In this document: positions 3,281 through 57,364 of the stretch, in pieces
How positions within the stretch are numbered: position 1 is the stretch's first letter
Layout of the letters: every line of letters starts with the position of its first letter
Virus record (IMG/VR): IMGVR_UViG_3300033149_001657
Coordinates: 1 to 64,000 of that record
DNA from: a virus
Lineage: Duplodnaviria; Heunggongvirae; Uroviricota; Caudoviricetes
DNA: 64,000 nt
Reading direction: 5' to 3' (one strand)
The notes under the pieces: model-generated
The model's database searches: none
What the model saw: only the letters and a program-made list of their open reading frames with translations
Told to the model about the DNA's origin: nothing
Position numbers and translations under genes: made by a program

Positions 3281-3289
3281 CAGATAATT

Positions 3290-3559
3290 TTAGTCACTAT
3301 CTTTAAAACTTTTGACCAAAGAGCTTATGATACTCTTAAAGAATCCACTTACAAATCCCAGAAAAGCTCCAAGTTCCCATAGCTCACATTCTATCTCAGT
3401 AAGATTCATCCATATTTTAATCACAGCCTGTCCTAAAGGAGTCATTCCTACAACCCATCCTACAAAAGCTCCGATAGCTGTAGCAGCTATAGCTACTACA
3501 AAAAATGCAGTTACCACTAATACTCCAACTATTATTACAGCAAGTCCTTCATCTGTCAT
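3290..3559 (-). CDS. small membrane protein (2 predicted TM helices), holin-like candidate
   Basis: Hydrophobic stretches VIIVGVLVVTAFFVVAIAATAIGAFVGWVVG. Ends ..DSD* encoded by the GATAGTGACTAA motif. Confidence 0.4.
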   Translation of the reverse strand: MTDEGLAVIIVGVLVVTAFFVVAIAATAIGAFVGWVVGMTPLGQAVIKIWMNLTEIECELWELGAFLGFVSGFFKSIISSLVKSFKDSD

Positions 3560-3697
3560 GAATCATACCTCCTCTAGTAACTATCATCTCTGACAGTATC
3601 AAATAAATCATCTATATTATCTTCATTAGTATTTCTTTCCTTAACAGATTCTTTTTCTATATCGTCATATAGTAAGAGTATAGCACATAGAACAATC

Positions 3698-3937
3698 TCA
3701 TCTATCATTGACATCTCTCCAGATCCAGTATGCCACTCTTAAAATAGTCCATAGTAAGAATATAACAGAGAATATTTCATGAATAGATGAAAGAACAGTT
3801 CCTATCGATAGCCATAGTATTGCTTCTGATACTCCCATTATAGCTGGATCTATTTCTCCATTCTTTATTCTACTTGGAATAGTCTTTGTAGCTCTATATA
3901 TCATTTTTAGAAATGCTCTAAAGGATGTATCTTTCAT
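3698..3937 (-). CDS. small membrane protein
   Basis: 79-aa ORF with hydrophobic segments. Confidence 0.35.
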   Translation of the reverse strand: MKDTSFRAFLKMIYRATKTIPSRIKNGEIDPAIMGVSEAILWLSIGTVLSSIHEIFSVIFLLWTILRVAYWIWRDVNDR

Positions 3938-3939
3938 AC

Positions 3940-4197
3940 TTACCTCCTCAAATATATTGTTCTTTTGAGTCTCTCAGCTTCAGAATACCAGTAATCAGCA
4001 TCGTACTGAAGCTCCTTTAGTTTCTTCCTAAGCTCATCTATTTCTCTACGTAATCTACTTGTCTCTTCCTCAGTATAATATAAATCGTATTCAAGATTGT
4101 CATAACACTCTGAACATACTACTTTAGATAGATCCTCTATTTTGTTGTTACATTTGGAACAAACTAGCTGTCCTAGTTTACTCTCCTCATTATTCAA
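3940..4197 (-). CDS. zinc-ribbon / coiled-coil small protein
   Basis: Motifs CSKCNNK..CSECYD followed by a charged coiled-coil region. Confidence 0.4.
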   Translation of the reverse strand: MNNEESKLGQLVCSKCNNKIEDLSKVVCSECYDNLEYDLYYTEEETSRLRREIDELRKKLKELQYDADYWYSEAERLKRTIYLRR

Positions 4198-4771: not shown

Positions 4772-5238
4772 TTCCTATCACCCAACTTTAGAAGATAATC
4801 CCACACAGCTAGAGTAGCTGCACAAGCTACATTAAGACATCTAACCTTGCCATTCATAGGCAGCTTTATTATGTCATCAGAGATAGATATGATCTCTTCA
4901 GGTACATTACCATCTTCTGGACCAACCACTATACATGGATCACTTTTCCACTGAAATGAAGGTATGTCATGTGCTCTTGGATGCAACTCCATGGATACCA
5001 GATATTCATTGTTGACATAGTCTACAAAATCACCAATAGAATCCATCATAGTGATGATGCTCCATGGTTCTCTTTTAGATAGTATCTTACGTTCCAGCCT
5101 CGATCTAACTAGGTCTCTCGGAGATACAACGATGAACTCTTCTGTTCCAACACCATCAGCTAATCTTAGAACATTATAGACGTTGATATATCGCTTTGGA
5201 GATATCATACAAATCTTCATTCTACTCATCAACTTCAA
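4768..5238 (-). CDS. SpoU/TrmH-family (SPOUT) RNA 2'-O-methyltransferase-like protein
   Basis: Motif 2/3 signature: IVVGPEDGNVP ... IKLPMNGKVRCLNVACAATLAVWDYL. Confidence 0.6.
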   Translation of the reverse strand: MKLMSRMKICMISPKRYINVYNVLRLADGVGTEEFIVVSPRDLVRSRLERKILSKREPWSIITMMDSIGDFVDYVNNEYLVSMELHPRAHDIPSFQWKSDPCIVVGPEDGNVPEEIISISDDIIKLPMNGKVRCLNVACAATLAVWDYLLKLGDRK

Positions 5239-5881
5239 ATCTGTATTCTACCTCATGATCTAGGAATTGTCTACCAAAACATCTTTCCTTAATAATCATA
5301 CAGTATTTTGGATCAATCTCAATACCAATACAAGATCTGTTTAGATCCTGACAGACTTTCATAGTAGTTCCACCACCAAGAAATGGATCAAGCACAACAT
5401 CACCTTCATCAGTTAACAATTCCACGATCTTCTTTACAAATCCTTCATGTTGACCCCACTTGTGGTATCTCTTATCCTTTCTCTCTGACTCATGTACATT
5501 ACACATCCATTCTGTTCTATAGGGTTTGCCCTTGGTAAAAGCAAGGACAGGTTTTGATCTAATCATCAGCTTCTTGTACCATACTCTGGGATTACCACCT
5601 CTGTGTAAAATTTCATATAACCAGAACCAATCTAAGTATGGAGTCATTAGCTGAAGTACATCTGGTAAGAACTGAGCTCCACAATAAGCAAATAGGTATC
5701 GTCCATCCTTGAGGAGTCTTTTCCCCTCTCTAGCTAGAGGCTCATATAGACAAATTCCTTCCTTTGTGTAAGGTGGATCTGTGATTATTAGATCGATGCT
5801 CTGGTCTTTCAGCTTGGGTAAGATCTTACAAGCATCTCCCTGAATTAACCAATAGAAATTCTTCATTACTATCTTCCACAC
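5222..5881 (-). CDS. DNA methyltransferase (N4-C/N6-A, beta-class order DPPY then FxGxG)
   Basis: Motifs LIITDPPYTKEG and VLDPFLGGGTTMKVCQDLNRSCIGIEIDPKYC. GTG start 13 nt after a GATAGTGACTA motif. Confidence 0.8.
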   Translation of the reverse strand: MWKIVMKNFYWLIQGDACKILPKLKDQSIDLIITDPPYTKEGICLYEPLAREGKRLLKDGRYLFAYCGAQFLPDVLQLMTPYLDWFWLYEILHRGGNPRVWYKKLMIRSKPVLAFTKGKPYRTEWMCNVHESERKDKRYHKWGQHEGFVKKIVELLTDEGDVVLDPFLGGGTTMKVCQDLNRSCIGIEIDPKYCMIIKERCFGRQFLDHEVEYRFEVDE

Positions 5882-5893
5882 TTTCTTTTTACT

Positions 5894-6358
5894 TTAGTCA
5901 CTATCATCTTCTATATCCATAACAGCTACGTATTCATAGTCTCCATAGACATAAGCACTGATAGTAACTATCGTTCCATCCTTAAGTCTTAGAGTAATTG
6001 AGCTCAATCCATCGTCAAAATAGTATTCATCATGAACACTCAAATCAATAACAGTAGCTCCTAGCAATTTCTTCTTCAGTTTCTCTTCCGTAGCTTTCAT
6101 CCTTCTCTTGTCTTGACACGTAGAACATATAGGTTCTTTCCATGGACATCTTCCCAGAAATATTTTACCACAGTCCTGACATTTCCAATATTTGTTTGGA
6201 TTCTCTTCATAGAGAGCTTCTTTAAGAGATTCATTTAACTCAGCTATTCTTGATTTTATATCAAGATATTCAGATCGTAGTTTGTACTCTGACTTATCAA
6301 TACTATCTAGTCTCTCCTGAAGCTCCTTAATCTGTCTACGAATTTCTTCACTTTTCAT
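5894..6358 (-). CDS. coiled-coil protein with C4 zinc finger
   Basis: Motifs CQDCGK..CPWKEPICSTCQD; N-terminal charged coiled coil. Confidence 0.4.
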   Translation of the reverse strand: MKSEEIRRQIKELQERLDSIDKSEYKLRSEYLDIKSRIAELNESLKEALYEENPNKYWKCQDCGKIFLGRCPWKEPICSTCQDKRRMKATEEKLKKKLLGATVIDLSVHDEYYFDDGLSSITLRLKDGTIVTISAYVYGDYEYVAVMDIEDDSD

Positions 6359-12106: not shown

Positions 12107-12418
12107 TCACACCTCACTAGCTAAGAGTAGTGGTTTAAGAAGTTCAACAATAGACCTAATCCATCTAATTATTTTATCTGGATCAGATTCAAATACTCTG
12201 AATCTTACAAATGTACTTAAACCAACTTTTTCGATACGTAAACAGATAGAGACTATCAGATCATAATCATGTTCCAATTTATGAATATCTACTGAGAATT
12301 TATCACTACTATAAACTACTGAGTTTAAAGATTTTCCTTCAATCTTAATAGCATAGTTCTTTACAATATATTTTTCTATCTTCCTAACACGTTCATCGAT
12401 TTGAGATAATGAATACAC
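12107..12418 (-). CDS. paralog-family small protein (cluster 1)
   Basis: C-terminus ..LLLASEV*. Confidence 0.5.
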   Translation of the reverse strand: MYSLSQIDERVRKIEKYIVKNYAIKIEGKSLNSVVYSSDKFSVDIHKLEHDYDLIVSICLRIEKVGLSTFVRFRVFESDPDKIIRWIRSIVELLKPLLLASEV

Positions 12419-12721
12419 TTAGAGCTCACCAGCTAAAAGTACCTTGTTTACATATTCAATTACAGTTAGAATCCATTGTTTAGCCCTATCTTCATCTTCA
12501 ACTGAAGAAGAAATAGTAAGCAATGAATCCTCCATAAACATATTTCCCTTAGCCTGTATCTTTATATTAAAGCCATTTCTCCAGCTGGTGATTTTAATTA
12601 CTATATGTTCATTATTAGCGATCTTAATAGTACACTCAGTATCGAAATGTACAACATAGAACTCATCAATCTCTTTTATAATCTTATTTACAAACTTAGA
12701 TAATGGACTAATAATCATCAT
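12419..12721 (-). CDS. paralog-family small protein (cluster 1)
   Basis: C-terminus ..KVLLAGEL*; N-terminus aligns with the 11804 ORF. Confidence 0.5.
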   Translation of the reverse strand: MMIISPLSKFVNKIIKEIDEFYVVHFDTECTIKIANNEHIVIKITSWRNGFNIKIQAKGNMFMEDSLLTISSSVEDEDRAKQWILTVIEYVNKVLLAGEL

Positions 12722-13925: not shown

Positions 13926-14759
13926 TCATTCTTCATCAATCCTCCTAATAATATATGGACACTTAGAATAGCTCTTCATAGGATAGTAACTATCTATTAC
14001 ATTTAATATCTCATATGGCTCTTCAATTTTAGCTATTGAGGAAGAAAATGAGCATGGAGATATAGAGCCGTCTGGAAATACTGATATTATCTTTCTACCA
14101 CAACCACACTCTTCTATCTTTCCAATTTCAAGAGCTATACTTTCATCTACATATAAGTCAAATAGCACACTTGAAATTTTAATTGTTCTCTTTAACTCAC
14201 TAGCTCCATAATTTAGCTCATAGAACTTAGGTTGTAAAGCATAGAATTTTAGTCCTTCTGTTTTTAAATAGTTAAAGACTAAAGGCATAATTCCAAGAGC
14301 TATCTTATCCAGTATAAGGTAGTTTACTCCTACTTCAAAGTTAGACAAATTAGATAAGCTATCTATTGTACTAGATATGTTCCGTATTGAACCGTTAGAC
14401 TTAACCTTATGATGATCTACTGATACTGATACTAAGTCTACGTATTCCAATGATTCAATTACTTCTGAGTTTATTATTGAACCATTGGTAGTGAGAGACA
14501 CATTCATATCACAGTGTTTAGCTGTTTTAGCTAGTTTAGTTACTATCTTTGGAAATAATAGTGGCTCTCCACCACCTATGGCTATCTGTGGAATATTATA
14601 TTCACTAGCTGCCTTTATTAGATCACAGAACCAATCCACATCTTTCTCTACAGTAGATTTGTGAATATAGCAGAATGGACAATCGAAATTACATTTGGTA
14701 GTAAAGTGTATCGATAATACTTCAATCATCATATCCATTATTTCTGCACCATTCTTCAA
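13926..14759 (-). CDS. radical SAM enzyme (CxxxCxxC), possible C-terminal auxiliary Cys cluster
   Basis: Motifs CNFDCPFCY, GGGEPLL, and C-terminal CGCGRK..SPCSF. Confidence 0.7.
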   Translation of the reverse strand: MKNGAEIMDMMIEVLSIHFTTKCNFDCPFCYIHKSTVEKDVDWFCDLIKAASEYNIPQIAIGGGEPLLFPKIVTKLAKTAKHCDMNVSLTTNGSIINSEVIESLEYVDLVSVSVDHHKVKSNGSIRNISSTIDSLSNLSNFEVGVNYLILDKIALGIMPLVFNYLKTEGLKFYALQPKFYELNYGASELKRTIKISSVLFDLYVDESIALEIGKIEECGCGRKIISVFPDGSISPCSFSSSIAKIEEPYEILNVIDSYYPMKSYSKCPYIIRRIDEE

Positions 14760-22474: not shown

Positions 22475-22487
22475 GATAGTAACTAAA
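22475..22487. promoter_or_regulatory. GATAGTAACTA(TC) junction motif
   Basis: gatagtaactaaa, 26 nt before the MoxR gene ATG; overlaps the upstream gene stop. Confidence 0.3.
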
Positions 22488-32898: not shown

Positions 32899-33523
32899 CT
32901 ATGACTTTAGTTACTATCTCCATCATCTCCTTATTTGATAGAAATGAACTTGGAGATCTATCAGAATATGCTAACCAACATGCTATCTGAGCTATGAAAC
33001 TAGCTGGAATAACCCAGCTAGGAACTATATTATATCCTTCTTGATCATCACCCCACGTTACTTCAGATAGCTTATAATTTTTAGATATTGTAACATGTTC
33101 TCCATCGTAGGAAGCTCTAATGAGAGTAAAATGCATTCTTCTCCAGATCCTCTCAATTATTTTATGAGCTTTTGAGTTATCAGTAGTATCAAAAACTATA
33201 TCACATTGACCAAGAAGATCAGCTGTTTCTTCAACAATCCTTCTCTCTATAGCAAATACTGTAGCATCTGGTCTAATCGAAATAATGAAGCTCCTTAAAA
33301 CCTTAGATTTCTTTTTTCCTATTACATCTTTAGGATATGGTAGTCTGTTTAAGTTAGTTACATCCACAAAGTCATCATCAAACAAATAGATAGTGTCTAC
33401 TCCAGACATAGCTGAATAGATACCTACCCATGTTCCTATTCCACCACATCCTATTATTCCTATCTTATGTGGAATATGCAATTTTAACTCACTCTGCCTT
33501 GAATACATCTTCACACACTCCAA
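32837..33523 (-). CDS. ThiF/MoeB/E1-like adenylyltransferase
   Basis: Motifs IGIIGCGGIGTWVG (GxGxxG), DDDFVDVTNLNRL and DIVFDTTDNSKAH. Confidence 0.8.
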   Translation of the reverse strand: MECVKMYSRQSELKLHIPHKIGIIGCGGIGTWVGIYSAMSGVDTIYLFDDDFVDVTNLNRLPYPKDVIGKKKSKVLRSFIISIRPDATVFAIERRIVEETADLLGQCDIVFDTTDNSKAHKIIERIWRRMHFTLIRASYDGEHVTISKNYKLSEVTWGDDQEGYNIVPSWVIPASFIAQIACWLAYSDRSPSSFLSNKEMMEIVTKVIGDKNERVWRIKGIEEEQESE

Positions 33524-43934: not shown

Positions 43935-44681
43935 ATGGTTAGACCGAGAAAAATCCATATAAGCAAAGAACAGATGAGAATTTGGTTAGAAAATGGAATG
44001 AGCTATAGAGAAATAACACGAGAAATTAAAAAGCTCTATGGCTTAAAATTTGACCCCTCAACGATATATAGGCATACCGTAAGACTCGGACTAAAAGACA
44101 AAAATATACACAAACAATATAAAGACTTTTGTAGAGAACACAAGAAAAAAGTTAAGAGAATCAATACACATTTAGCGACTAAAGCTAATTGCTATATGGA
44201 CATCACAGAGATAAGCTTTAGATCACAAAAGGGCAAACATAAGAGATCAGTTAAACGATATTTTGTGAGCTTAAAGGTAGAGAAAAAACTATATCTTTAT
44301 TACATCAAAGATCAAACAAAAGCTTCAATCCTAACAGCTATGATACATCTAAAGGAATTTATGCCAGCAAATCCGATTTGTTTAGTTGATACACAATTTA
44401 ACCCAAAGCTTCCCGAAAGATCAGAGATAACATTTTGTAACACAGAGAAATGGCATCCAATTAAAAATATGGTTGAAAAACATCACGGATTCAAGACAAA
44501 TATATACGCTAAATTCTGGAAGTTCAAGACCGTATCTTACTCAAAGATGAACGATGAATCTAAAAGACAGCTCCTAAGGATATACATTGAAACGATAGAA
44601 CGTAATGAACACATTGAGATAATCAACAAGGATGAAATGATAACAGAGATATGTAGATTAGCCGAAGCTCAACAACTATAA
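43935..44681 (+). CDS. basic HTH-domain protein, candidate transcriptional regulator (alternatively transposase-like)
   Basis: N-terminal helix-turn-helix MSYREITREIKKLYGLK..STIYRH. The only plus-strand gene in the early region; flanked by inverted copies of the palindromic motif (43809-43838 and 44701-44731). Confidence 0.45.
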   Translation: MVRPRKIHISKEQMRIWLENGMSYREITREIKKLYGLKFDPSTIYRHTVRLGLKDKNIHKQYKDFCREHKKKVKRINTHLATKANCYMDITEISFRSQKGKHKRSVKRYFVSLKVEKKLYLYYIKDQTKASILTAMIHLKEFMPANPICLVDTQFNPKLPERSEITFCNTEKWHPIKNMVEKHHGFKTNIYAKFWKFKTVSYSKMNDESKRQLLRIYIETIERNEHIEIINKDEMITEICRLAEAQQL

Positions 44682-44976: not shown

Positions 44977-44989
44977 GATAGTAACTATC
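44977..44989. promoter_or_regulatory. GATAGTAACTATC junction motif (perfect) just downstream of terL
   Basis: Perfect palindrome 7 nt after the terL stop. Confidence 0.3.
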
Positions 44990-44995
44990 TCATCT

Positions 44996-46399
44996 CTAGA
45001 ATAGGACAAGTGGTTTTCTCCTTGTTCTAGCTACCTTGTAATAGATATCAGCAGTTTGTCTGTTCTCTTCTATATCCCTAAGAGAAAGCATCAATGCAGT
45101 TACTCTATCATCTCCCTTTCTCTTATCCCATGTATAGAGTCTAAGCTCATTTAATAGTGGTTGAAATTCCTCTGGTACTAAGACTTTCTCTTTTTCAAAC
45201 AAAGTCTTCATTCTAACCTGTAGTGTTCCAAGTTCCTTAGCTAGATCAACAGCTTCAGTCATTATTCCTCTCATCCGTAGTCTATCCACTGTTCTCTGAG
45301 ATTCTCCTTTAGGATTCAAATCCACAAATACATAGTCTGGTCTATATCTCAAGGCATAAGCTTCTATCCAATCCTGTATGTTCTCATATTTGATTCTATT
45401 CCATTCAACTACATCAATGATTCTATACATATCGTCGACCTTGTTAGCAACTACAATAACAGACAGATCTCTATATCCGTAGTCTATACCAAATATGATC
45501 TTACCATTTTTCATCTCAGAATCATATCTAAACTTATGTATTCCAATAGAACACTTTCTAATGTCATCTATTGGAACCACAGTATTGGTAACTGGGTATG
45601 GAATACCCTCCCAGAACACTCTGAACTGTTCCTCAGTAAGATTTCTCTTAGCCTCTTCTATCTCCTCTTCTGTAAATCTAGGACAGTCCATAGCTGACCA
45701 TGAGAATCTAGCCCATGTAGTAGGTTTCCTCTGATCTTCAGATAGATCAAAATAATCTGGATATGTCTTCTTGTCCATCCACATCTCAACAAACTTTGAC
45801 GTGTATTCCATTGGAGTACCACTGAGAATGATTAAAGAATCATCGAATCCACCAACAATACGATAAGTATCGTTTATAGTGAAGTCATCTACTAATGCAG
45901 CTTCATCTATTATAACAGCTGGCACATGTTTACCCTGAATAGATTTGAGTGACAGAGGAAGAGCTCTAACTACGGACTTGGTCTTAAATCTTGTAATAGT
46001 CTTTAGAACGTCACCATCTATCACTTCACCAAATATCTCATTCTCTTTGAGAGGAACAGCTGAATACTCATATAGTGATCTAGACTGCTCAGCTGATCCA
46101 GACACTATAACTACATCAAATTTCTTCCTATGATAGTAACTATAAACCAAAGCTAACCACAAAGCTATGCATGCCAGTAGTTTACTCTTTCCAGTGCCTC
46201 CTGCCGAAACTATCATGATTCTTCTTAGTTTTAATTCTGGAAGATATGACATCACTCTAGCTTGATATGGAAATGGCTCTTGATGATATAAGTCTCTGAA
46301 AAAAGAAGAGGGATCTTTGTACCACTGAACTATCTTTAGTTGTATTGGTATTGTCATAAGTCTATCCTTCTGAGAATACTTCTTCCCATCTCTCCACAA
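44996..46399 (-). CDS. terL: terminase large subunit (TTG start, overlaps small subunit)
   Basis: Walker A SAGGTGKSK; Walker B AVIIDEAALV; C-terminal nuclease-like acidic motifs (IDYGYRD, D..D). Confidence 0.8.
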   Translation of the reverse strand: MWRDGKKYSQKDRLMTIPIQLKIVQWYKDPSSFFRDLYHQEPFPYQARVMSYLPELKLRRIMIVSAGGTGKSKLLACIALWLALVYSYYHRKKFDVVIVSGSAEQSRSLYEYSAVPLKENEIFGEVIDGDVLKTITRFKTKSVVRALPLSLKSIQGKHVPAVIIDEAALVDDFTINDTYRIVGGFDDSLIILSGTPMEYTSKFVEMWMDKKTYPDYFDLSEDQRKPTTWARFSWSAMDCPRFTEEEIEEAKRNLTEEQFRVFWEGIPYPVTNTVVPIDDIRKCSIGIHKFRYDSEMKNGKIIFGIDYGYRDLSVIVVANKVDDMYRIIDVVEWNRIKYENIQDWIEAYALRYRPDYVFVDLNPKGESQRTVDRLRMRGIMTEAVDLAKELGTLQVRMKTLFEKEKVLVPEEFQPLLNELRLYTWDKRKGDDRVTALMLSLRDIEENRQTADIYYKVARTRRKPLVLF

Positions 46400-48207: not shown

Positions 48208-49455
48208 ATGCCTATACTAATCAAAATGAATCTTGGATGTAATTTTGAGTGTGAGTATTGTTATCAGAAACCAATTAGAAAGCTAAAAGATAAAGAATGG
48301 AATCTTAAAAGAGTTAAAGAGACAATTAGAAATCTAATATTAACCATGCCAAGAGGATCTAATCAACAGATAGTTGTTCATGGAGGAGAACCATTAACTA
48401 TGCCAATAAATATACTTGAACAGTTACTAGCTCTTTCTTACGAGCTTACTGGTAAATCTAGTATACAAACAAATGGATATCTAATAACTGATAAACATAT
48501 TGAACTATTTAAGAAATACAAGACTAGCGTAGGAATATCAGTAGATGGTCCATTTCAATGTAATGTTTTACGTGGTAAAGGAAACTTGAAAGATAGAAAG
48601 AAACAAACAGAGAGAGTACTTAAGAACTTAAACAATCTTGTAGAAGCTGGTGTTTCTACTTCAGTAATAACAGTAGTACATAAGAAAAATGCAATTGGAA
48701 TAAATAGAGACTTATTAAAGAGTTTTATTTTGGATCTTCATAAGAAAGGTATCCATGGAAGACTGAATCCATGTGGAACAGATGATCCAGAGATCTCTCT
48801 TACTATTGAAGAAGCTATAGATTTCTATACTGACATGTACAAGTTTATGGAAGAGAATGGAATCTATGGATGGTCACCATTCATCGATATATTAAATTCA
48901 CTACAGAGAAAATCATGTGTATGTACATTTAGTGGTTGTGATCCATACTGTACGCCATCAGCTATTTCAGTACTCCATGATGGATCTCTTGGAGTATGCC
49001 TTAGATTATACAATGATGGTAAAGTCTATCTAAGAGATACTACACCTACTTCAATGAGAACACAACTCCTTAAAGAGACAGAATGTAAAGGTTGTAAATG
49101 GTTTGATTATTGTAAGGGAGGATGTAGTGGACTTAGTATAAATTCAGATTGGAGACACAAGGATAGATTCTGTGAAGTATACAAAGCTCTATTTGAATTA
49201 GCACATAACACTCTAAAGTTTGTTGGAATACACCCCCCATCCGTATCACAAATCTCAAGATCAAGATACGAACATTTAGATCATGGTATTAGACACCTTG
49301 ACAGTGATATTGAAAACGATCATACGGATGGAATCAAGCACTCAGACACTGGAACCACTCACCTAGATAGTAACTTCTACTCAAAGTCTGATCATTCGGA
49401 TGGAGAAAGACATGTAGATGGACCAATAGAACATTTAGATAGTAATTGGAGGTGA
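48208..49455 (+). CDS. radical SAM / SPASM-domain enzyme with C-terminal His/Asp-repeat tail
   Basis: Motifs CNFECEYCY; GGEPL; SPASM-like CKGCKWFDYCKGGCSG; roughly 60-aa tail with repeats HLDxG/HLDSN/HSDG/HTDG. Confidence 0.7.
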   Translation: MPILIKMNLGCNFECEYCYQKPIRKLKDKEWNLKRVKETIRNLILTMPRGSNQQIVVHGGEPLTMPINILEQLLALSYELTGKSSIQTNGYLITDKHIELFKKYKTSVGISVDGPFQCNVLRGKGNLKDRKKQTERVLKNLNNLVEAGVSTSVITVVHKKNAIGINRDLLKSFILDLHKKGIHGRLNPCGTDDPEISLTIEEAIDFYTDMYKFMEENGIYGWSPFIDILNSLQRKSCVCTFSGCDPYCTPSAISVLHDGSLGVCLRLYNDGKVYLRDTTPTSMRTQLLKETECKGCKWFDYCKGGCSGLSINSDWRHKDRFCEVYKALFELAHNTLKFVGIHPPSVSQISRSRYEHLDHGIRHLDSDIENDHTDGIKHSDTGTTHLDSNFYSKSDHSDGERHVDGPIEHLDSNWR

Positions 49456-49460
49456 AATAA

Positions 49461-50234
49461 ATGGAGCCTTTTACTAGAATATTATGGTTTGATCAGAAGA
49501 CAAAGCAGATATGGAAAAGACAAATTGAACAAGCTAGAAGACTCTATGAAGCTGTAGAGTTTGCTACTTTTGAAGCTGGTATGAGAGATGTCTATGTTAT
49601 GCACATATATCCAGAGAAGATATCTCAGCAACTAGAAATGATAGCTAAAGGTAAGTATGTTTTTCTTCCTATTCTGAAGAGTAAACGCTATTCTGGATTC
49701 TCTCACAGACATATACCACCAAAACCTGGTGATCCATATTTCATTTACGGAGTAGTAGCCAGAAATCTGGAGGATGCTGAGAGGTTCAAGGAATGTTCCA
49801 TTGGAAACAAGGTAGATCATGTAGAGATTGGAAGATTACTTGGATATCCTGAATGTTGTACAGAATTCTTTGATAAAGTCTGGAATAAGAAAAGCATAGA
49901 TCCAATCTATGAAGCTTATGGTTCAGAGACTTCTATTCATCCATTCTGCAATCAAGCTTTAAGATACTTTGGCATTAGACTAACACCTCATCTTGTTTGC
50001 TCTCCAACATGCAAGAGAACTATTGAAATGGGTAAGAAGTGGTTCAAAGTAGCTGAATCAATAGACTATGGATCTGCTCATACTCTTTTGAAGTTACTAT
50101 CCATGCCGTTTAAATGGTCATGTCTAAATGGATGTGCAATTATAGACACTGAACTATTTAGAGGTGTAACTAATTCGGATAAATGTTCAGAGGAAAAGGT
50201 TGTGATAAATCATGGATGGAACAAAGAACTTTAG
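49461..50234 (+). CDS. Cys-rich protein (GYPECC motif), probable partner of the rSAM enzyme
   Basis: SD GGAGGTGA then ATG; motifs LLGYPECCTEFF, CSPTCKR, CLNGC. Confidence 0.45.
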   Translation: MEPFTRILWFDQKTKQIWKRQIEQARRLYEAVEFATFEAGMRDVYVMHIYPEKISQQLEMIAKGKYVFLPILKSKRYSGFSHRHIPPKPGDPYFIYGVVARNLEDAERFKECSIGNKVDHVEIGRLLGYPECCTEFFDKVWNKKSIDPIYEAYGSETSIHPFCNQALRYFGIRLTPHLVCSPTCKRTIEMGKKWFKVAESIDYGSAHTLLKLLSMPFKWSCLNGCAIIDTELFRGVTNSDKCSEEKVVINHGWNKEL

Positions 50235-50874
50235 ATATTGTGTAGCAACTCTTGTTGGGAGACACAAGATCTATAGTACGAAAGATTTTATAGAACATTT
50301 AGAAAGAGTTACTGTACAGCCAGAGGTTATCGTTGTTTCATCCATACCAGAGATACATGAGATATTCTTCAGATATCAAAAGAATATACCAGTAGTTGGA
50401 ATAACTGGAGATCATGATGAAGGAAGAAATAGAATAGTAGACACTACTTCTGCTAGGGAATCTCTTAGACAATATATTATAAAGAATAACTATGAATGGT
50501 CACTATGGTTGGATAATGACATACTAGTACCATCCAATATAACTGAAAAATTCTTATCGTATCTAAGAAATAATCCTGAAGTTAAAATGGTTCATTCATA
50601 TCATCCAGCTAGACAGTATGGAGAGGAACTTAGACATGGAATCGGTAGTTCTTTTATTCACAAAGATCTTCTAGAAGCTTATCCATTTACTTATGCAGAA
50701 ATTAAAGGTCATTATTTAGGCGATGACCAGATTTGGTTACTAGTGATTAACCAATTAACTAGTATATATTATCCAAGATCCATCATAAGAGGAACACTAT
50801 TTGATCTTAAACATAAACGTGAAGATGGTACAGTAGCTTCCTTATCTGACAAATATAGAGATCAATTACTTTAG
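50212..50874 (+). CDS. DxD-motif nucleotide-sugar-transferase-like protein (GT-A-like, tentative), paralog 1
   Basis: Motif NYEWSLWLDNDILVP; paralogous to the next gene. Confidence 0.35.
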   Translation: MDGTKNFRYCVATLVGRHKIYSTKDFIEHLERVTVQPEVIVVSSIPEIHEIFFRYQKNIPVVGITGDHDEGRNRIVDTTSARESLRQYIIKNNYEWSLWLDNDILVPSNITEKFLSYLRNNPEVKMVHSYHPARQYGEELRHGIGSSFIHKDLLEAYPFTYAEIKGHYLGDDQIWLLVINQLTSIYYPRSIIRGTLFDLKHKREDGTVASLSDKYRDQLL

Positions 50875-50883
50875 TGACTAGAA

Positions 50884-51504
50884 ATGGAACCTTATATAGT
50901 TCTTACTCCATTTGGAGACCACAAACATTATGCTCTTAAAGAGTTTATTAGATCATTGAATAAACTTAGACCTCAACCAGAAATGAAGATTATATGTGCA
51001 GACTTGGACACAAAATACAAAGATGAATTAGAAAGTTACGATCTAGTAGTATATTACAGTCCAGAGATCTTCTCCCCTCCATCTTACCTGGAACGAATAT
51101 GTATGTCAAGAGAAATCCTAAGAAAGAAGTTCATTTATTCCAACTATGAATGGTCATTATGGATAGATTCTGATATTATAGTACCTCCAGATACTCCAAG
51201 AATTCTATATAAAATAGCTAAAGATAGTAACTGTCTGGTAGTCTCAAATGGATATCCAGGAAGCTACGGTCATGAACATGAGATCTGGCATGGATCTGGT
51301 GTTATGTTAACTAACAAGCTAGCTTGTACTGGTTCTAGATTTTGGGTAGCAGATTTCAATGGCAAGCACTTAAGTGAAGACTTTGTATTTCTAAGTATTT
51401 TAGATCAAGGTAGTTATTTTATAGAACAATATACTGGAAGAAAAGCCAGAATAGTGGGAGAATTCGTGAAAGTCAAACATCTAAGCCATAAACATAGTCA
51501 CTAA
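50884..51504 (+). CDS. DxD-motif transferase-like protein, paralog 2
   Basis: Motif NYEWSLWIDSDIIVPP; convergent overlap with the repeat-protein stop. Confidence 0.35.
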   Translation: MEPYIVLTPFGDHKHYALKEFIRSLNKLRPQPEMKIICADLDTKYKDELESYDLVVYYSPEIFSPPSYLERICMSREILRKKFIYSNYEWSLWIDSDIIVPPDTPRILYKIAKDSNCLVVSNGYPGSYGHEHEIWHGSGVMLTNKLACTGSRFWVADFNGKHLSEDFVFLSILDQGSYFIEQYTGRKARIVGEFVKVKHLSHKHSH

Positions 51505-52544
51505 GCTGTGTGTATATCACTCCAATCCTGATGAGGGTTAGCTCCATCTTGATGATCAGTCCAATCCTGATAGCTATCTGTCCAGTCTAGATGTGGTACT
51601 CCGTCATCACTATATACTACATTACTCCAATCTTCATGAGGAACACTATCTGTCCAGTCTTGATGTGGAGCTCCTCCACCACCTGCATCATTATGATCAG
51701 TCCAGTCCAGATGAGGAGGACCTGAATCTGAGTATGTTGCATCCGACCAGTCGCTATGAGCTACAGAATCTGTCCAGTCTGAATGTATACCATCTGTCCA
51801 GTCCTGATAGTCAGAGTGATATGGTGGTACATCTGAATAATCAAACCAATCAGTGTGGATACCATCAGACCAGTCATTATGACTATCAGTATGTGGTACA
51901 TTTGAATGACTGGTATCCGACCAATCAGTGTGTGGTCCAGAATCCGTATAGTCAGACCAGTCACTATGCACGTCAGACCAATCACTATGACTGTCAGTAT
52001 GAGGAGTATCTGAATGAGAACTATCCGACCAGTCTGTATGTGGTCCAGAATCAGAGTGTCCAGTATCCATATGATCACTCCAGTCCTGATACGTATCAGT
52101 CCAGTCACTGTAGAATGTCCAGTTCAAACCATCTGTTGTCTGCACAGACTCAGGTGCCAGAAACATCATCTTTACTTCATCTGTTGTGTGGAATGCCTCA
52201 AGTATTGAAGACTTCGATTTGAAGCTACCTACTGTCTGGATAGACTCATCTTTGAATAATGAAGTTAACAACCTATCATCTAAAGATACATCATGCTCTG
52301 TCAGGAATTTGTCTCCCCATGCAACAGCCCATATACTCCCATTATGGTATACTCTTACTGGACTAGCTAGTGGTGAAATAGTAGATACAAGTCTGAGACT
52401 GATGGTCTCTCCTCCAGTAAAGATTTTGACAAATGTACCTTCGGTAATGTCTTTCTCCCATGATAGAACTTTCCATCTAAGAACACGAGACTTTCCTTTG
52501 TATCCCACTCTTACCTTAGACCAATCAGTGCTCATCTTCATCAC
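51501..52544 (-). CDS. DW[ST]D / PH-repeat protein (347 aa) with globular N-terminal domain
   Basis: About 18 repeats of DWSD/DWTD separated by ..PH[TSLQ]. Overlapping shadow ORFs in other frames are side effects of the DNA repeats. Confidence 0.5.
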   Translation of the reverse strand: MMKMSTDWSKVRVGYKGKSRVLRWKVLSWEKDITEGTFVKIFTGGETISLRLVSTISPLASPVRVYHNGSIWAVAWGDKFLTEHDVSLDDRLLTSLFKDESIQTVGSFKSKSSILEAFHTTDEVKMMFLAPESVQTTDGLNWTFYSDWTDTYQDWSDHMDTGHSDSGPHTDWSDSSHSDTPHTDSHSDWSDVHSDWSDYTDSGPHTDWSDTSHSNVPHTDSHNDWSDGIHTDWFDYSDVPPYHSDYQDWTDGIHSDWTDSVAHSDWSDATYSDSGPPHLDWTDHNDAGGGGAPHQDWTDSVPHEDWSNVVYSDDGVPHLDWTDSYQDWTDHQDGANPHQDWSDIHTA

Positions 52545-55500: not shown

Positions 55501-55735
55501 TAAGCCACTTATATGTTGAAGATCCTAACGAGTATGTTCCACTAGTCTTAGGATAAATGTTTCCAGCATTCTGGATTGGATTACCATCCATATCTATATA
55601 TGTTGGTCTAAGATAGATAGAGTGATCTCCAATCTTGAATCCTTTCTTTAGTATATTCTTAACAAGAGATTCTAACCTATCTGAATCTAAAAGAAAGAGA
55701 TTACCAGATTCAATGTCATACTTAAAGTCTATCAT
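52544..55735 (-). CDS. tail fibre / receptor-binding protein with two LamG (ConA-like) domains
   Basis: Six repeats of the [YR][DN]LGSS[ST]Y[KR]WKDLYLAG type at the N-terminus; LamG-like blocks (TISAWFKTT..EWHHVVFVV..LYVDGSL and TVIGWFYHRD..WVHIAVVFN..FIDGVQQ). Confidence 0.6.
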   Translation of the reverse strand: MIDFKYDIESGNLFLLDSDRLESLVKNILKKGFKIGDHSIYLRPTYIDMDGNPIQNAGNIYPKTSGTYSLGSSTYKWLNAFLSGYADIGSLRIGGTEVIDSTRRLKNILTIVTTGEPSQFYCGAHPIKIGKFETIDEEGRAGNYPAIWADLVLRIAQRVEVWGSPDGHYLDVRNSDGTKTIVLRGDTGQILPGANNAYNIGSSSYKWKDGYFAGAIDLGSLKVAGTEVLTSGRILQNIVSVAQTLLPDADNSRDLGSSSYRWKDLYVGGRAFLDHVVGFGFIHDMLSCVAGKNDLWNASLDSGSEYVDDVEANFGRAFTYWEGWTGSLSIRNMEGFMTGRKYMLLLRAKMSGSLGDARILIYNWTDATTEFSVDILNKLTTSYQIIDAGIVNADWDPEDDVRFHFGSNATNNDDGFHGGDDPEYIPGRVYIDWLVMIPIPSYSLIPSRDNAYDLGSSSYKWKDLYLAGIGDLGSLKIGGTEVIDASKILKNIASFAQDLIPDVDASRDLGSASYRWQDLRLSRDIYIGGDAFISGILDNPYIDAYSSDYGLVLYLPFEEGTGTSVYDESPYGNDGTVYGTLSGTVYGASWVDGKYGKALSFDVSDYVKVPHDDSLDLSAEFTISAWFKTTVVSGYRGLVSYDDETVDNNISYMIYLPNSNAIRGRIADGSASKYVTVSGTSDGEWHHVVFVVTSDQILLYVDGSLGDSTPRTINPRISPDNTLKVGRYRTMDSWDGLIDEVRIYNRVLNEEEIQQLYQGEDVGGGRVLCLRFDEGEGTTVYSDNWCDGKFGKALSFDGKNDQLECSPSSSLDFGTNSFTVIGWFYHRDYTYPKTTCCIWHGNAHGGVNPHPGFQIGHGYVSNGIKCAIRDVEGNTVFDVVPCDVGSRPLDWRNKWVHIAVVFNRALGQCYAFIDGVQQSGYLDISSVTGSIDNNLKLVVGNCVGWRLDGVADDIRIYNRALTEEEIRALYLAGKSRYSRSIVVSDKFRILNTSLSELLRLTTTNLNLNVSLLPSTDNTYDLGTSTYRWKDLFLAGQAIGLRLENRTSDPSSPAEGQIWIRTDL

Positions 55736-55923
55736 TGTTTCTTCTCCTTGGTCTCTTTCTTATCCTCTTTCATCTTAGTCTCTTGTAATTGTCTATTCAA
55801 CTCAGCAATTTTTACACCTAGTCTTGAAAGATCTTCAATAGCATTCTGAAGAATCCATATAGTGGACTGAAGGTTCCTAGCCATCTTCTCGATCAAGATA
55901 GTTATTTCTTGATTAGTACTCAC
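55732..55923 (-). CDS. small coiled-coil protein
   Basis: 63-aa Lys/Glu-rich ORF. Confidence 0.35.
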   Translation of the reverse strand: MSTNQEITILIEKMARNLQSTIWILQNAIEDLSRLGVKIAELNRQLQETKMKEDKKETKEKKQ

Positions 55924-56213
55924 TTAGATTCACCTCCATTGTTTTTAATTTTTATTTTCTTTCCTATTAAATGTTTAACTGAGTCTTTCTTGCTTTTATT
56001 GTTTTCTTTCTCTTTCTCTATAGTTGCTAGCTGCTCGGATCGTTCCTTAACCTTGGATTCTAGAAATGTATCTAACTCAGACTCTGTCATCTCTACTAAC
56101 TCCAAGTATGGGATTGATATTCCAAATCCATCATCATCAGATACAAGTACTATAAGAGCTGTGTCTCCTTCAACCTCGACTCCATCTATCCTATATTCTT
56201 TCAAGATGTTCAC
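55920..56213 (-). CDS. hypothetical acidic protein (GTG start)
   Basis: GTG 14 nt after an AGTTACTATATC motif. Confidence 0.4.
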   Translation of the reverse strand: MNILKEYRIDGVEVEGDTALIVLVSDDDGFGISIPYLELVEMTESELDTFLESKVKERSEQLATIEKEKENNKSKKDSVKHLIGKKIKIKNNGGESK

Positions 56214-56221
56214 CTCATATT

Positions 56222-57364
56222 TTAAGATATAGTAACTTCCCCATAAGTTTTAACCTCAGTACTTGTTATGTCTAATGATGGAAATGTCTTGCTTGGGTAA
56301 CCTTCAACTATGTCAAGTGAATATACATATGGATACATTTCGTAGTAAAGAGAATCTGACGTATATATTGTCTTAGGAAAAATAGTTACTATCTTTGAAA
56401 TCTTATCGGATAAAGTTATAGGTACTTCTCTCAGGTTAATATGTTTAATTAACACTCCAGATACTTCAACAATTTCTCTGGTCTTCATACGGATTCTGTA
56501 TAAAACATCAGATAAAGAGACAGTTCTCTTGAATCTAGCATAGATAGTAACTATCTCATTTAGAATTACATGTTCAAAAGATAATAATTTTGACGTAATA
56601 AATGGTGCTAAAGAAGTAGTCTCTTTCCATAGTACCTTGAACATGGACTTATCTATCGACGGAACAGCTGCAATTAGATTTAAGTAAACTTGTGCAAACA
56701 AACTGAATACAATATGTTGTATCAATGCTATCTTTACTCTAATTATATGCACAATAGATACAATTTCATTTCCTATAAGCTTAAGTACAAATCTGTCTAT
56801 CAATGAAATAATCATATCCAACTTTAGATGAAACACAGATAAGATACTTATCATTATATGATCAAGTAATCTCAGTTCAGATTTAATTGAAGATAGAATG
56901 GAAATGACTTCTTTCCCAAAATGTTCAAGAAGCAACCTATCTAGTGTCAAAGCAGTTTCAACTAGCTTAAAATAAATCCGAGTAAAGATGCTTACTATAA
57001 TATCTTCTAGTAATGTTAGCTTAATCCTAATATAGGATAGTACAGGGTTGATTTCATTACCAATAAACTTAATCAGTAACTTATCGACTGTTGAAAGACT
57101 TATAAATAACCTCAGATGAATAATAGTAAAAACTTTCAATAAAACTGTCTCTATCTTTTTTACATAGAGAAACATAGTTGATATGATAGTGACGAGATAC
57201 AAGCGAATAAAATGTATTTTAAACAGTTCTGACACTAACACATTTATCCTTTCAAAGCCCAATTTAACTGATATTCGTTCATATAGTGAAATAGCTTCTC
57301 CAAATATACGATGGACTGATCTTGCAATTATTTTTATAACTCTAACTGGAATTGCTATTGACAA
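56222..57364 (-). CDS. tandem 42-aa-repeat hydrophobic protein in tail module
   Basis: Five or six repeats of the [LI]D[KR]x[LF]hxK[FL]IGNEIxxhhSxI[RK]x[KE]LxLL..I..SIF type. Confidence 0.45.
   Translation of the reverse strand: MSIAIPVRVIKIIARSVHRIFGEAISLYERISVKLGFERINVLVSELFKIHFIRLYLVTIISTMFLYVKKIETVLLKVFTIIHLRLFISLSTVDKLLIKFIGNEINPVLSYIRIKLTLLEDIIVSIFTRIYFKLVETALTLDRLLLEHFGKEVISILSSIKSELRLLDHIMISILSVFHLKLDMIISLIDRFVLKLIGNEIVSIVHIIRVKIALIQHIVFSLFAQVYLNLIAAVPSIDKSMFKVLWKETTSLAPFITSKLLSFEHVILNEIVTIYARFKRTVSLSDVLYRIRMKTREIVEVSGVLIKHINLREVPITLSDKISKIVTIFPKTIYTSDSLYYEMYPYVYSLDIVEGYPSKTFPSLDITSTEVKTYGEVTIS

Follow-up and report, generated by a model that had tools for sequence, protein, structure and literature searches.

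A 13-bp dyad-symmetric word, GATAGT-N-ACTATC (extended form aaAGATAGTnACTATCTtt), is repeated far above chance in the DNA of an uncultivated tailed virus. Selection acts on the word itself at the DNA level, even in the interiors of open reading frames (ORFs). The analysis covered a 64-kb window of its ~108-kb genome. This private word is most likely the putative binding site of a virus-specific DNA-binding protein. As our best explanation, we tentatively propose (probability approximately 0.45) that it may be an operator or roadblock site, dispersed along the genome, at which a virus-encoded dimer binds, similar to stoperators and KorB OB sites.

The perfect form GATAGTAACTATC occurred nine times in the window, whereas dinucleotide shuffles predicted 0.00 copies. 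Strand-hits with two or fewer mismatches numbered 56 against 4.5 expected and represented 39 loci. The core TAGTNACTA was present 47 times (~0.7 per kb), and GATAGTAACTA ranked first among the over-represented 11-mers of the window (22 observed vs. 0.17 expected). The consensus was palindromic to about +/-9. The word is AT-rich in a genome of 34% G+C. The palindrome excess was confined to this word, with no general excess of palindromes in the window. An earlier sequence-only reading of this DNA listed four perfect copies, of which those at 36273, 37900, and 44977 were verified and the fourth lies at 40325 instead of 40324; five others (3098, 5960, 13982, 29757, and 56543) were overlooked. The variants it reported, located here at 3291, 5895, 22475, 28794, 36377, 39401, 39967, 40254, 40761/3, 42427, 42933, and 51495, all carry TAGTNACTA, and the weaker form AGTAACTTAGGAGTGA is present upstream of 47639. 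The variant at 56226/56230 is also present, but only as TAGTAACTT. The main sites and associated features are as follows.

3098..3110: perfect 13-mer, read in frame as IVTI, inside ORF 2939-3280
3289..3301: GATAGTGACTAAA (sense), includes the TAA stop of ORF 3290-3559; GGTGAT of the next gene 7 nt on
3573..3585: GATAGTTACTAGA (sense), abuts the GGAGG Shine-Dalgarno sequence (SD) of ORF 3290-3559
5893..5905: GATAGTGACTAAA, includes the stop of ORF 5894-6358
5960..5972: perfect 13-mer inside ORF 5894-6358, stop 66 nt further on
13982..13994: perfect 13-mer, read in frame as DSYY, inside the radical-SAM ORF 13926-14759
14535-14547: second copy in the radical-SAM ORF 13926-14759
22475..22487: junction copy, its TAG the stop of ORF 22483-22926; GGTGATCGGAGG 4 nt later; kept in L128
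28792..28804: junction copy directly 3' of the stop of the 631-aa ORF, then T6 and an SD; kept in L128
28942..29769: three copies inside the 631-aa ORF, namely two cores (28944 and 29052) and a perfect 13-mer (29757-29769)
32906..32918: GATAGTAACTAAA (sense) within the 3' end of a ThiF-like ORF; GGTGAT of ORF 32008-32898 6 nt on; kept in L128
36273..36387: 280-bp stretch of very small ORFs with a perfect copy (36273-36285) and a TATAGTAACTAAA copy (core 36377); both kept in L001
37900..37912: perfect copy that overlaps the stop codon of ORF 37912-38211; kept in L001
39399..39411: GATAGTAACTAAA (sense), intergenic, with cTTAAAA ahead; kept in L001
39900..43830, - strand: early-region cassettes (nine repeats), 13-mers at 39967, 40254, 40325, 40761, 42425, and 42931
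43935..44681, + strand: gene with an N-terminal three-helix helix-turn-helix (HTH), candidate DNA-binding partner
44977..44989: perfect copy 7 nt past the stop of the large terminase gene
46132..46144: TATAGTTACTATC (sense) inside the terminase gene; identical in L001 despite differing flanks
50870..50882: core TAGTGACTA, includes the stop of the + strand ORF 50212-50874 and precedes the start of 50884
51493..51505: core at the convergent junction of a + strand module (end 51504) and the - strand ORF 51501-52544
56381-56393 (one mismatch) and 56543-56555 (perfect): two copies inside ORF 56222-57364, read in frame as IVTI
62524..62557: two cores 21 nt from each other, immediately 3' of the tail-tube gene (62565-63512) stop codon and covering the start of ORF 62146-62562

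Intergenic DNA represents 8.75% of the window, yet held 36% of the loci (p=3e-6). For 43% of cores, a start codon followed within 100 nt, compared with 17% for random positions. The placement that the sequence-only reading described before SDs and at stop codons was borne out: junction copies were 4-8 nt ahead of GGTGAT or GGAGG, and 12 of the 47 cores overlapped a stop codon or were 15 nt or less downstream of one. However, copies extended beyond gene junctions, with 25 of the 39 loci and 31 of the 47 cores wholly within ORFs. A T-run 3' of the motif, also claimed, was found for a few copies (40325, 39967, and 28792), but was not general. Copy density was the highest in the early region and the lowest in the structural (late) region. 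Copies had no orientation relative to transcription; the asymmetric variant GATAGTAACTAAA was sense four times and antisense three times at equivalent junctions. The central base on the sense strand was G rather than C at a ratio of 10:1 (p=0.03), which hints at strand asymmetry.

The intragenic copies, approximately two thirds of the total, occurred in both orientations and two reading frames. Many encoded IVT(I) or DS(N/Y)Y, which, together with the AT-richness of the word, might suggest that the word has no function and simply follows from codon or dinucleotide bias or from a repeated peptide. We consider the probability of this explanation to be negligible. Counts of coding copies were 5, 15, 25, and 31 against 0.22, 2.0, 9.3, and 8.0, respectively, in synonymous-codon shuffles, a 3- to 20-fold excess, and the word was also found on either strand as well as between genes. 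Cores were retained in L001/L128 at 8 of 10 coding and 9 of 12 non-coding sites, whereas control 9-mers were retained at a frequency of 0.32 (p=0.002 and 0.003, respectively). The by-product explanation was, thus, refuted by both types of shuffle and by conservation in a relative; bias, which the sequence-only reading had named as the counter-explanation, failed, and the motif survives that test. The same reading attributed the copies in CDS 56222-57364 to a protein repeat, which was wrong: 16 of the 19 IVT tripeptides across the window were encoded as ATAGTNACT, and the shuffle excess was window-wide. The 631-aa protein is widely conserved, and lineage-specific residues coincide with two of its three sites. 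The copies at 28944 and 29757 encode YLVTKF (YLFDFY in the family) and DSNY, which depart from the family consensus and are common only to the closest homologue, while GIVTIS at 29052 is within the normal variation of the family. Intragenic sites in this gene appear to have been created by lineage-specific amino acid changes. Collectively, the shuffle excess, retention in L001/L128, and these residue changes indicate that the intragenic copies are no side effect of the encoded proteins.

The motif is conserved in position in the closest relative of the virus, with other private palindromes replacing it at corresponding places in more distant relatives: TCCAGCWGCTGGA in L122 (9 vs. 0.36 expected), TGTAGTCCGGACTACA in L136 (13 vs. 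0.07 expected), and TCCTAYWRTAGGA in L124/125. At the terminase-stop junction, a palindrome site was kept in L001, L122, L124/125, and L136, with a private word for each lineage. Such lineage-specific words at corresponding junctions point to a reader that co-evolves with them, and the replacement of one word by another at the same places is our reason for regarding the motif as a putative site of a virus-specific DNA-binding protein. L123/129/138 and L131 had no such word, and, thus, the system is dispensable. The words differed among relatives of differing G+C content, which possibly have different hosts.

A signal in RNA is an alternative that we regard as unlikely. The stem-loop GAUAG-UNA-CUAUC upstream of SDs may be recognized by a virus-specific RNA-binding protein (an intercistronic endoribonuclease or translational operator), or may be a 5'/3' stabilizer that splits or tunes long polycistronic transcripts. 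Junction copies close ahead of SDs and on or after stop codons are consistent with this, as are the distance to the SD in the early cassettes (4-13 nt), which was tighter than that to the promoter box (0-8 nt; 18-26 nt from TTGCAT), the scarcity of C at the sense-strand center, and stronger hairpins in the same arrangement in relatives (UGUAGU-CCGG-ACUACA, -4.0 kcal/mol, in L136; a 10-bp stem, -8.1 kcal/mol, in L002). The palindrome is, moreover, identical in either orientation. A few symmetric double changes were found (TATAGTAACTATA vs. CATAGTAACTATG in L128 and TCTAGCAGCTAGA in L122), which is what pairing would predict and is evidence against a DNA site. However, the hairpin of the motif is marginal (-1.5 kcal/mol) and is lost in the frequent junction variants GATAGTAACTAAA (0.0 kcal/mol) and TTTAGTTACTATC, which still keep the core. 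The two half-sites decayed independently; complementarity between halves at the outer positions was no higher than predicted by the marginals, no covariation was found among the copies compared, and G.U-compatible mismatches were not favored on the sense strand. There was no match in Rfam, and approximately 30 selected intra-ORF copies would imply cleavage or binding within coding sequences. The independent decay and marginal hairpin indicate that the signal is the sequence, not the structure; the motif is symmetric in sequence, not in pairing. The RNA-processing and hairpin-terminator interpretations of the sequence-only reading are, thus, weakened.

The word may also be a promoter or initiator of middle genes for virus machinery (an RNA polymerase, sigma/TFB-like factor, or N4-style extruded hairpin), with a private word for each lineage, as in T7/T3/SP6 phages. 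We consider this to be quite improbable. It fits a lineage-specific, conserved word just 5' of SDs, the T7/N4-like layout with all genes in one direction away from a probable genome end, and the lack of any other repeated candidate for middle promoters among enriched k-mers. A 5-bp stem with a 3-nt loop is also the geometry of N4 early promoters, which are similarly lineage-specific inverted repeats ahead of early genes used by the virion RNA polymerase (PMC4496689). However, N4 has three oriented promoters that depend on extrusion and maintain pairing, whereas this virus has ~47 directionless copies, many deep within ORFs, with asymmetric copies pointing both ways, pairing that is not conserved, and no giant polymerase in view. 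No recognizable RNA polymerase was found in the 64-kb window, the 631-aa ORF has no polymerase-like fold, no second element was found at a fixed distance, and the word in early cassettes is downstream of an already conserved promoter-like box. The late promoter suggested by the sequence-only reading, similar to T4 TATAAATA, is not supported, given the same lack of orientation and second element and the rarity of the word in the structural region. A genome-wide DNA-level role outside transcription is a further, unlikely possibility: a self-identity or protection mark, ParB/SMC-like or packaging loading, programmed priming, nicking or methyltransferase modification, or a copy of a host-factor site in the host genome. 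Selection regardless of coding status and orientation is consistent with this, as are the different words of relatives with other G+C contents, two encoded DNA methyltransferases (N6/N4), the 13-bp palindromes of KorB OB (PMC11790492), and a terminase that is distantly T5-like, since T5-like phages carry localized nicks (PMC3517423). However, priming, packaging, or identity marks would not be expected to cluster so strongly in intergenic DNA and the early region or at stop codons and promoter cassettes. Furthermore, known nick sites are asymmetric and restricted to a single strand (PMC3517423), and nicks in both strands of a palindrome would sever the genome. Methyltransferase targets are usually neutral or avoided rather than enriched, and no ParB domain was found in the scanned ORFs.

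In the early region, a ~60-bp cassette, repeated nine times with TTGCAW boxes starting at 43783, 43240, 42971, 42468, 41801, 41266, 40805, 40294, and 39917 (- strand), contains a T-run, the palindrome CAACAnTCTTA[C/G]TAAGAnTGTTG, which overlaps TTGCATAAC, and a YTTATAAA box; the 13-mer or its degenerate remnant comes next, ahead of the SD and ATG. Promoters with a degenerate 13-mer in the window have a perfect 13-mer in L001. The cassette, not the 13-mer, resembles the promoter-early stem-loop (PeSL) modules that flank each small early ORF in T4-type phages as near-identical units of promoter and palindrome and could mediate modular shuffling (PMC2839356, PMC4122927); however, it has no sigma-70 geometry, and the 13-mer is also found far from cassettes. 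The host may be archaeal, in which case the order of box, 13-mer, and start site matches two known layouts: the promoters of the rudivirus SIRV, in which a virus-specific element follows the TATA box, and the operators of archaeal repressors, which are located between the TATA box and start site (PMC5569661). Archaeal viruses depend on the RNA polymerase of the host (PMC5569661). In contrast to the 13-bp palindrome, the rudiviral element is a 3-nt GTC, and no RHH or Lrp-type regulator was present among the scanned ORFs.

The dispersed arrangement resembles two known systems. The stoperators of Cluster A mycobacteriophages (L5, Bxb1, and TipsytheTRex) are also 13 bp, present in more than 20 copies genome-wide, and located at promoters and in short intergenic spaces, often at stop or start codons. 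Operators and stoperators are thought to block initiation and elongation, respectively, and their consensus varies between related phages along with the immunity repressor (PMC9283540, PMC6550527). However, stoperators are asymmetric, have one orientation, and are read by a two-domain monomer, whereas the present word is a palindrome without orientation preference and has approximately two thirds of its copies inside genes under selection. This virus is also unrelated to Cluster A, and the window showed no sign of a temperate lifestyle, such as a repressor homologue or an integrase. OB, the KorB operator of the plasmid RK2, is likewise a 13-bp palindrome of the 6-1-6 type (TTTAGCSGCTAAA) that recurs around a ~60-kb replicon, with some sites beside promoters and others distant. 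RK2 has 12 copies of OB, several-fold fewer than this virus. KorB, a ParB-family protein, loads at OB and silences at a distance (PMC11790492). A partition function is not implied for the virus, and no KorB/ParB-like or KorA-like protein was detected in the window. Pfam and NCBIfam scans of 72 small and 30 larger ORFs revealed no clear HTH, RHH, or ParB domain. The gene at 43935..44681, the sole + strand gene adjoining the early region, is a weak candidate for the DNA-binding partner of one repeated element; it is missing from some motif-bearing relatives in the DNA examined.

The dyad consensus, the occurrence of its asymmetric variants in both orientations at equivalent junctions, the independent decay of its halves, and its position between the TATA/-10-like box and SD favor the regulator site that was among the proposals of the sequence-only reading. 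We tentatively propose that the dispersed operator is a double-stranded site read half-site by half-site by a symmetric, virus-encoded dimer. At the nine early promoters, the site between the YTTATAAA box and SD lies on the expected transcription start or immediately 5' of it, and, thus, its occupancy would block initiation. Copies on stop codons, in cistron spacers, and in gene interiors may be extra landing sites along early and middle transcription units, acting as elongation roadblocks or as loading or nucleation points for silencing. Against this explanation, a repressor of promoters only would not need ~30 intragenic copies, and, thus, the latter roles are inferred. Through these sites, the early and middle units of the virus would be shut off or kept quiet en bloc.

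The 13-bp palindrome is a real and strongly selected feature of this genome and is broader than the sequence-only reading described. The perfect 13-mer GATAGTAACTATC occurs nine times in the window, against 0.00 in dinucleotide shuffles. The enrichment check proposed in that reading, a count at two or fewer mismatches in intergenic and coding DNA, was run and returned 56 strand-hits (4.5 expected) at 39 loci in 64 kb. Intergenic DNA is 8.75% of the window, yet it holds 14 of the 39 loci (p=3e-6). An invariant core, the 9-bp palindrome TAGTNACTA, was found at 47 loci in the window, and the word recurs at approximately 0.7 per kb. The most over-represented 11-mer of the window was GATAGTAACTA (22 copies vs 0.17 expected). 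Palindromes of the 5-3-5 or 6-1-6 type showed no general excess in the window; the enrichment was confined to one word. Dinucleotide and codon biases are excluded as explanations because dinucleotide and synonymous-codon shuffles both fall short. The positions noted earlier were accurate to a base or two, and the weaker form reported before 47639 is present. In an exact 14-mer scan of viral_contigs, the matches listed were single chance matches in unrelated contigs only, and a full-text literature search for the sequence retrieved only primers and similar unrelated uses.

Cores were located within 100 nt upstream of a start codon more often than random positions (43% vs 17%, p=3e-5), and 12 of the 47 overlapped a stop codon or started no more than 15 nt after one. 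The stop codons concerned include that of the tail-tube gene and those of the following genes:

44996-46399, large terminase
28804-30699, - strand, 631-aa ORF of a family of at least 1,453 homologues (620-645 aa, approximately 50% identical)

Junction copies have GGTGAT or GGAGG 4-8 nt downstream. Density was highest at 36-43 kb, and the structural region at 45-64 kb was sparse and weak (10 weak cores). Site clustering, 3'-end bias within genes and G.U wobble bias were not significant in informal checks.

The motif had been described as an element of gene junctions. Copies at junctions were confirmed; however, the motif is not confined to them, and most copies are within ORFs. Twenty-five of the 39 loci (two or fewer mismatches) and 31 of the 47 cores were fully intragenic, in two frames (IVTI and DS[N/Y]Y) and both orientations. 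They include perfect copies that had not been listed:

3098, 5960, 13982, 29757 and 56543, perfect copies within ORFs

The encoded protein does not account for the intragenic copies, as had been suggested, because their counts exceed those of shuffles in which synonymous codons were permuted within each gene. Coding copies numbered 5, 15, 25 and 31 (perfect, one or fewer mismatches, two or fewer mismatches and core, respectively), against 0.22, 2.0, 9.3 and 8.0 after shuffling. IVT tripeptides were written as ATAGTNACT in 16 of 19 cases. In the closest relative, the contig IMGVR_UViG_3300033156_000141 (loci L001 and L128; 74-95% DNA identity over aligned blocks), 8 of 10 alignable coding cores were intact, against a fraction of 0.32 for control 9-mers drawn from the same alignments (p=0.002), as were 9 of 12 non-coding cores (p=0.003). 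Furthermore, two of the three motif sites in the 631-aa ORF fall on residues exclusive to this lineage: DSNY, at a variable position, and YLVTKF, in place of the family's YLFDFY. Based on the shuffle excess, the conservation in the relative and the lineage-only residues, we concluded that selection acts on the word as a nucleic acid, even where this carries some cost for the protein.

The consensus in transcription orientation, aaAGATAGTnACTATCTtt, is symmetric to approximately +/-9 and alike for coding and intergenic copies. Its halves decay independently, with complementarity at +/-5 to +/-10 equal to the expectation from marginals. The common half variant GATAGTAACTAAA occurs four times in sense and three times in antisense at equivalent junctions, and TAGTAAC has 28 copies on the + strand and 18 on the - strand. 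As RNA, the 13-mer folds into a marginal hairpin of -1.5 kcal/mol; the 19-mer consensus reaches -4.9 and the half variant 0.0. The DNA hairpin of the motif reaches -0.7 kcal/mol. As caveats to a reading without pairing, two symmetric double substitutions were noted, at orthologous sites (TATAGTAACTATA vs CATAGTAACTATG) and in the relative L122 (TCTAGCAGCTAGA), and the centre base is mildly biased on the sense strand (G:C = 10:1, p=0.03). Since the halves are independent, the half variant occurs both ways and the hairpin is marginal, these results favour two half-sites on duplex DNA, read by a symmetric dimer, and argue against a hairpin with functionally required pairing. The word does not fit an intrinsic terminator: the stem is weak, T-runs follow only three copies, and a terminator scan of 36-45 kb gave 3 hits vs 2.9 expected, none at the motif. 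The hairpin-terminator likeness proposed earlier is thus weakened.

The window has a G+C content of 34%. Nearly all of its ORFs are on the - strand, the exceptions being the ORF at 43935-44681 and a four-gene module at 48208-51504. In addition to the terminase, the products include a tail-tube protein, large virion proteins, two radical-SAM proteins and many small ORFs without a known family. A set of accessory genes was also found:

1385-2122, 5222-5881, 26415-28293, 32837-33523 and 18345-22450, accessory genes (listed jointly): two N6/N4 DNA methyltransferases, a ThiF-like E1 enzyme, an SPFH/Band-7 protein, a metallophosphoesterase and an RNA ligase, and an ATPase adjoining a DUF2201 metallopeptidase-VWA protein

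The metallophosphoesterase and RNA ligase may function in RNA repair. Neither tRNAs nor Rfam matches at gathering thresholds were found in the window. No cultured phage matched at the DNA level in a megablast of 12 kb, and the terminase is only approximately 25% identical to T5-like phage terminases (tblastn). A 107,896-bp contig on record encodes proteins identical or near-identical to window products.

The module at 48208-51504 (+ strand; radical SAM, a DUF483-like protein and two unknowns) runs opposite to all of its surroundings, and a motif core is present at its right boundary (51495). In the relative L126, homologues of its first two genes (approximately 40% identical) share the strand of the terminase, and L123 has a radical-SAM gene of the same orientation. 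This points to an inversion or independent acquisition. All genes run away from a point at approximately 44000-44990, and three independent assemblies of relatives (L122, L124 and L126) stop 0.4-0.9 kb downstream of the terminase gene, which suggests that the terminase and the early region flank a physical end of the genome or a terminal repeat. Several terminase homologues of the clade (P0004, P0010, P0018, P0022, P0023 and P0026) are 727-806 aa, against the usual length of approximately 450 aa. These genes probably contain inteins, given the extra length and the intein/LAGLIDADG Pfam domains carried by one of them.

Relatives bear different words. L126 (terminase 86% identical) has the word unchanged. 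L122 (76%, 40% G+C) has TCCAGCWGCTGGA at 9 loci vs 0.36 expected, L124/L125 (53%) have TCCTAYWRTAGGA, and L002 (56%) has three copies of AACTATATCT-CTC-AGATATAGTT. In the 107-kb contig L136, the word TGTAGTCCGGACTACA occupies 13 loci vs 0.07 expected, mostly 2-8 nt before the SD or on a stop codon. The site just after the terminase stop is filled in the window, L001, L122 and L124/L125, each by the word of its own lineage. Because each genome has one word, the words differ between genomes and equivalent places are occupied, these patterns point to a genome-encoded reader, the specificity of which may co-evolve with its sites. No such word was found in L123/L129/L138 (a 113.9-kb genome) or L131/L132. 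L131/L132 instead carry seven near-identical canonical TTGACA-17-TGGTATAAT promoters (ATACTTGACAA-N-TGGTATAAT), and L135 has a dense direct repeat, GGAGTAGGAGTGGGAG (16 hits). Given this direct repeat and these promoters, the more distant members of the clade appear to use ordinary bacterial promoters and no palindromic word. The word system thus seems to be accessory, not universal.

In the early region, nine repeats of a cassette of approximately 60 bp precede nine small ORFs (- strand, 39900-43830). In each, a T-run comes first, then a 23-bp palindrome (CAACAnTCTTA[C/G]TAAGAnTGTTG) that overlaps TTGCATAAC, then a YTTATAAA box; 0-8 nt past the box is the 13-mer, followed by the SD and ATG. 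A good copy of the 13-mer is present in four cassettes and a degenerate copy in three. L001 has perfect AGATAGTAACTATCT at several promoters whose copies in the window are degenerate. Cassettes were also found in relatives:

L001 (closest relative), 12900-16500, early cassettes
L002 (a further relative), 12390-14200, early cassettes

Those of L002 retain the CTTA[C/G]TAAG core and have GTTAAAAAACC in place of TTGCATAAC. A sigma-70 promoter scan of the early region gave no more hits than expected from shuffles. They are comparable to the PeSL cassettes of T4-type phages but lack sigma-70 geometry.

The early cassette has a TATA-like box, not a -35/-10 geometry, and the SD of the window is GGTGAT. 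On the sense strand of the window there are eight T-runs of at least seven, against a single antisense run. All but one of the eight are intergenic and come directly after genes, with no (G+C-rich) hairpin before them:

34661-34669, 38956-38964, 39613-39620, 39949-39955, 40316-40324, 40827-40837 and 41826-41834, sense strand, T-runs of 7-11

The T-runs after early genes look like archaeal-type oligo-T termination signals. In the species-genome collection, the terminase has a single relative (92% identical), encoded by a 3.1-kb contig from a Candidatus Woesearchaeota MAG (L140, CAYTYH010000073.1). A homologue of the 631-aa protein was located on an 82-kb, virus-like contig belonging to a Methanophagales MAG (L141, JAPDIB010000105.1), together with genes for a family-B polymerase (PolB) and an S-layer-like protein. 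As a lead, an archaeal host is possible for this virus family. If so, the 13-mer is between the TATA box and the start site, where archaeal repressor operators are usually placed. Rudiviruses have a virus-specific element between the TATA box and the start site (PMC5569661). A bacterial host is also possible, since cultured homologues of the 631-aa protein are found in cyanophages S-CRM01 and S-CBWM1 and L131/L132 have bacterial promoters.

Thirty larger ORFs were scanned with Pfam, 72 small ones with Pfam and NCBIfam, and early ORFs with PHROGs; none of these 102 ORFs of the 64-kb window (of a genome of approximately 108 kb) showed a clear DNA-binding domain. The same ORFs did not include an immunity repressor (HTH and stoperator domain) or an integrase, and ParB/ParBc had no match in the window. 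A walk past the left end of the window led into a mosaic relative, in which only methyltransferases and an RNA ligase were found. There is a sole candidate for the reader of the word:

43935-44681, + strand, 248-aa ORF with an N-terminal HTH, divergent from the early genes

Its N-terminal three-helix HTH, of the resolvase/transposase type, is confidently predicted, and the rest is poorly modelled (AF2 pLDDT 56). Foldseek gave a weak, uninterpretable match to an IS transposase (TM 0.17). The family is very small (four homologues), with orthologues in L001 and L002 only. We regard this protein as an unproven candidate. The 631-aa ORF was rejected as a hidden RNA polymerase because its AF2 model (pLDDT 78) had no significant PDB fold match. 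The family has no Pfam domain. In the model, the N-terminal half is helical and the C-terminal half is a beta-sandwich. The conserved GDxT/DLD motifs of the protein may resemble TerD-like domains.

The reading we favour, at a probability of roughly 0.45, is that the word is a dispersed operator for a virus-encoded dimer and represents a new symmetric variant of genome-wide operator sites. At early promoters, the protein bound between the promoter box and SD would prevent initiation. Further positions for the same protein would be provided by the copies on stop codons, between cistrons and in genes; there it could halt elongation or spread. Any position in a transcription unit would then be tolerated, and intragenic copies would be under selection, though less dense than those in free intergenic DNA. 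Cluster A mycobacteriophages have more than 20 copies of a 13-bp operator/stoperator site in promoters and short intergenic spaces, and these sites block initiation and elongation (PMC9283540). The present word is similar in length and number (47 cores and 39 loci in 64 kb) and is also present in promoters and short intergenic spaces (14 of 39 loci), although it is mostly intragenic. However, stoperators are asymmetric, with an orientation that follows transcription, whereas this word is palindromic and unoriented. KorB loads at palindromic OB sites and silences at a distance (PMC11790492). Like the KorB/ParB OB sites, the word is a 13-bp 6-1-6 palindrome with many dispersed copies; in contrast to KorB, no ParB-like protein was found in the 64-kb window. 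The many selected intragenic copies in the window distinguish the word from both stoperators and OB sites.

Other readings are less probable. An RNA-level role, as an intercistronic processing site, translational operator or stabiliser, would explain the tight SD spacing and the stronger hairpins in L136 and L002; we consider it rather unlikely because of the half variants, lack of covariation and intragenic copies. Other DNA-level roles (identity mark, priming, modification or nicking) are unlikely as they leave the bias to junctions and promoters unexplained. Furthermore, the nick sites of T5, phiKMV and tf are asymmetric and on one strand only, whereas the word is palindromic and on both strands (PMC3517423). 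It is improbable, though conceivable, that each lineage of this possibly archaeal family has a private 13-16-bp palindromic genome word, at approximately 0.7 per kb and present even in conserved proteins at the expense of residue changes, read as a genome-wide code by a fast-co-evolving virus factor. The code could, for example, confer self-identity or silencing on the chromosome as a whole, or direct promotion or processing through hairpins; in either case its mechanism would differ from that of operators, stoperators and ParB sites.

A promoter for virus-specific transcription machinery appears very unlikely. It is consistent with a word private to each lineage and with genes laid out in one direction; however, the palindromic symmetry, mixed orientations and copies deep in ORFs are not, and neither a recognisable RNA polymerase in the window nor a polymerase-like fold in the 631-aa ORF was found. 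The earlier comparison with T4 late promoters (a -10 element like TATAAATA) is not supported, as the word has no orientation bias and is rarest in the structural region. The hairpin promoters of N4 share the geometry (5-bp stem and 3 nt), but not the number, orientation or pairing (PMC4496689). N4 has few oriented copies, maintained pairing and a giant virion RNA polymerase, whereas the present motif has 47 copies in both orientations and in ORFs, and its outer positions pair only at marginal expectation. REP/RAYT-like elements, Chi-like sites, uptake sequences and restriction sites were ruled out by length, symmetry, the direction of enrichment or placement. A likeness to Fur-family 7-1-7 boxes was weighed and set aside because the words of relatives are unrelated.

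If the operator reading is correct, genome-wide dispersed operators would have arisen a second time, independently, in a large virus, here in symmetric rather than asymmetric form, and selection would fix codon choice (16 of 19 IVT tripeptides) and even alter residues of a family otherwise approximately 50% identical. Since close relatives bear different words at the same junctions, this family is a natural experiment in which DNA-binding specificity would co-evolve with dozens of scattered targets. The reading is directly testable, and a 15-bp duplex is a simple bait for the regulator. The word may be used to spot fragments of this lineage in metagenomes, and its placement marks transcription-unit boundaries in a genome almost without annotatable genes. 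Moreover, the oligo-T runs, the TATA-like box and the archaeal MAG labels would bear on the host of a group now filed with bacteriophages.
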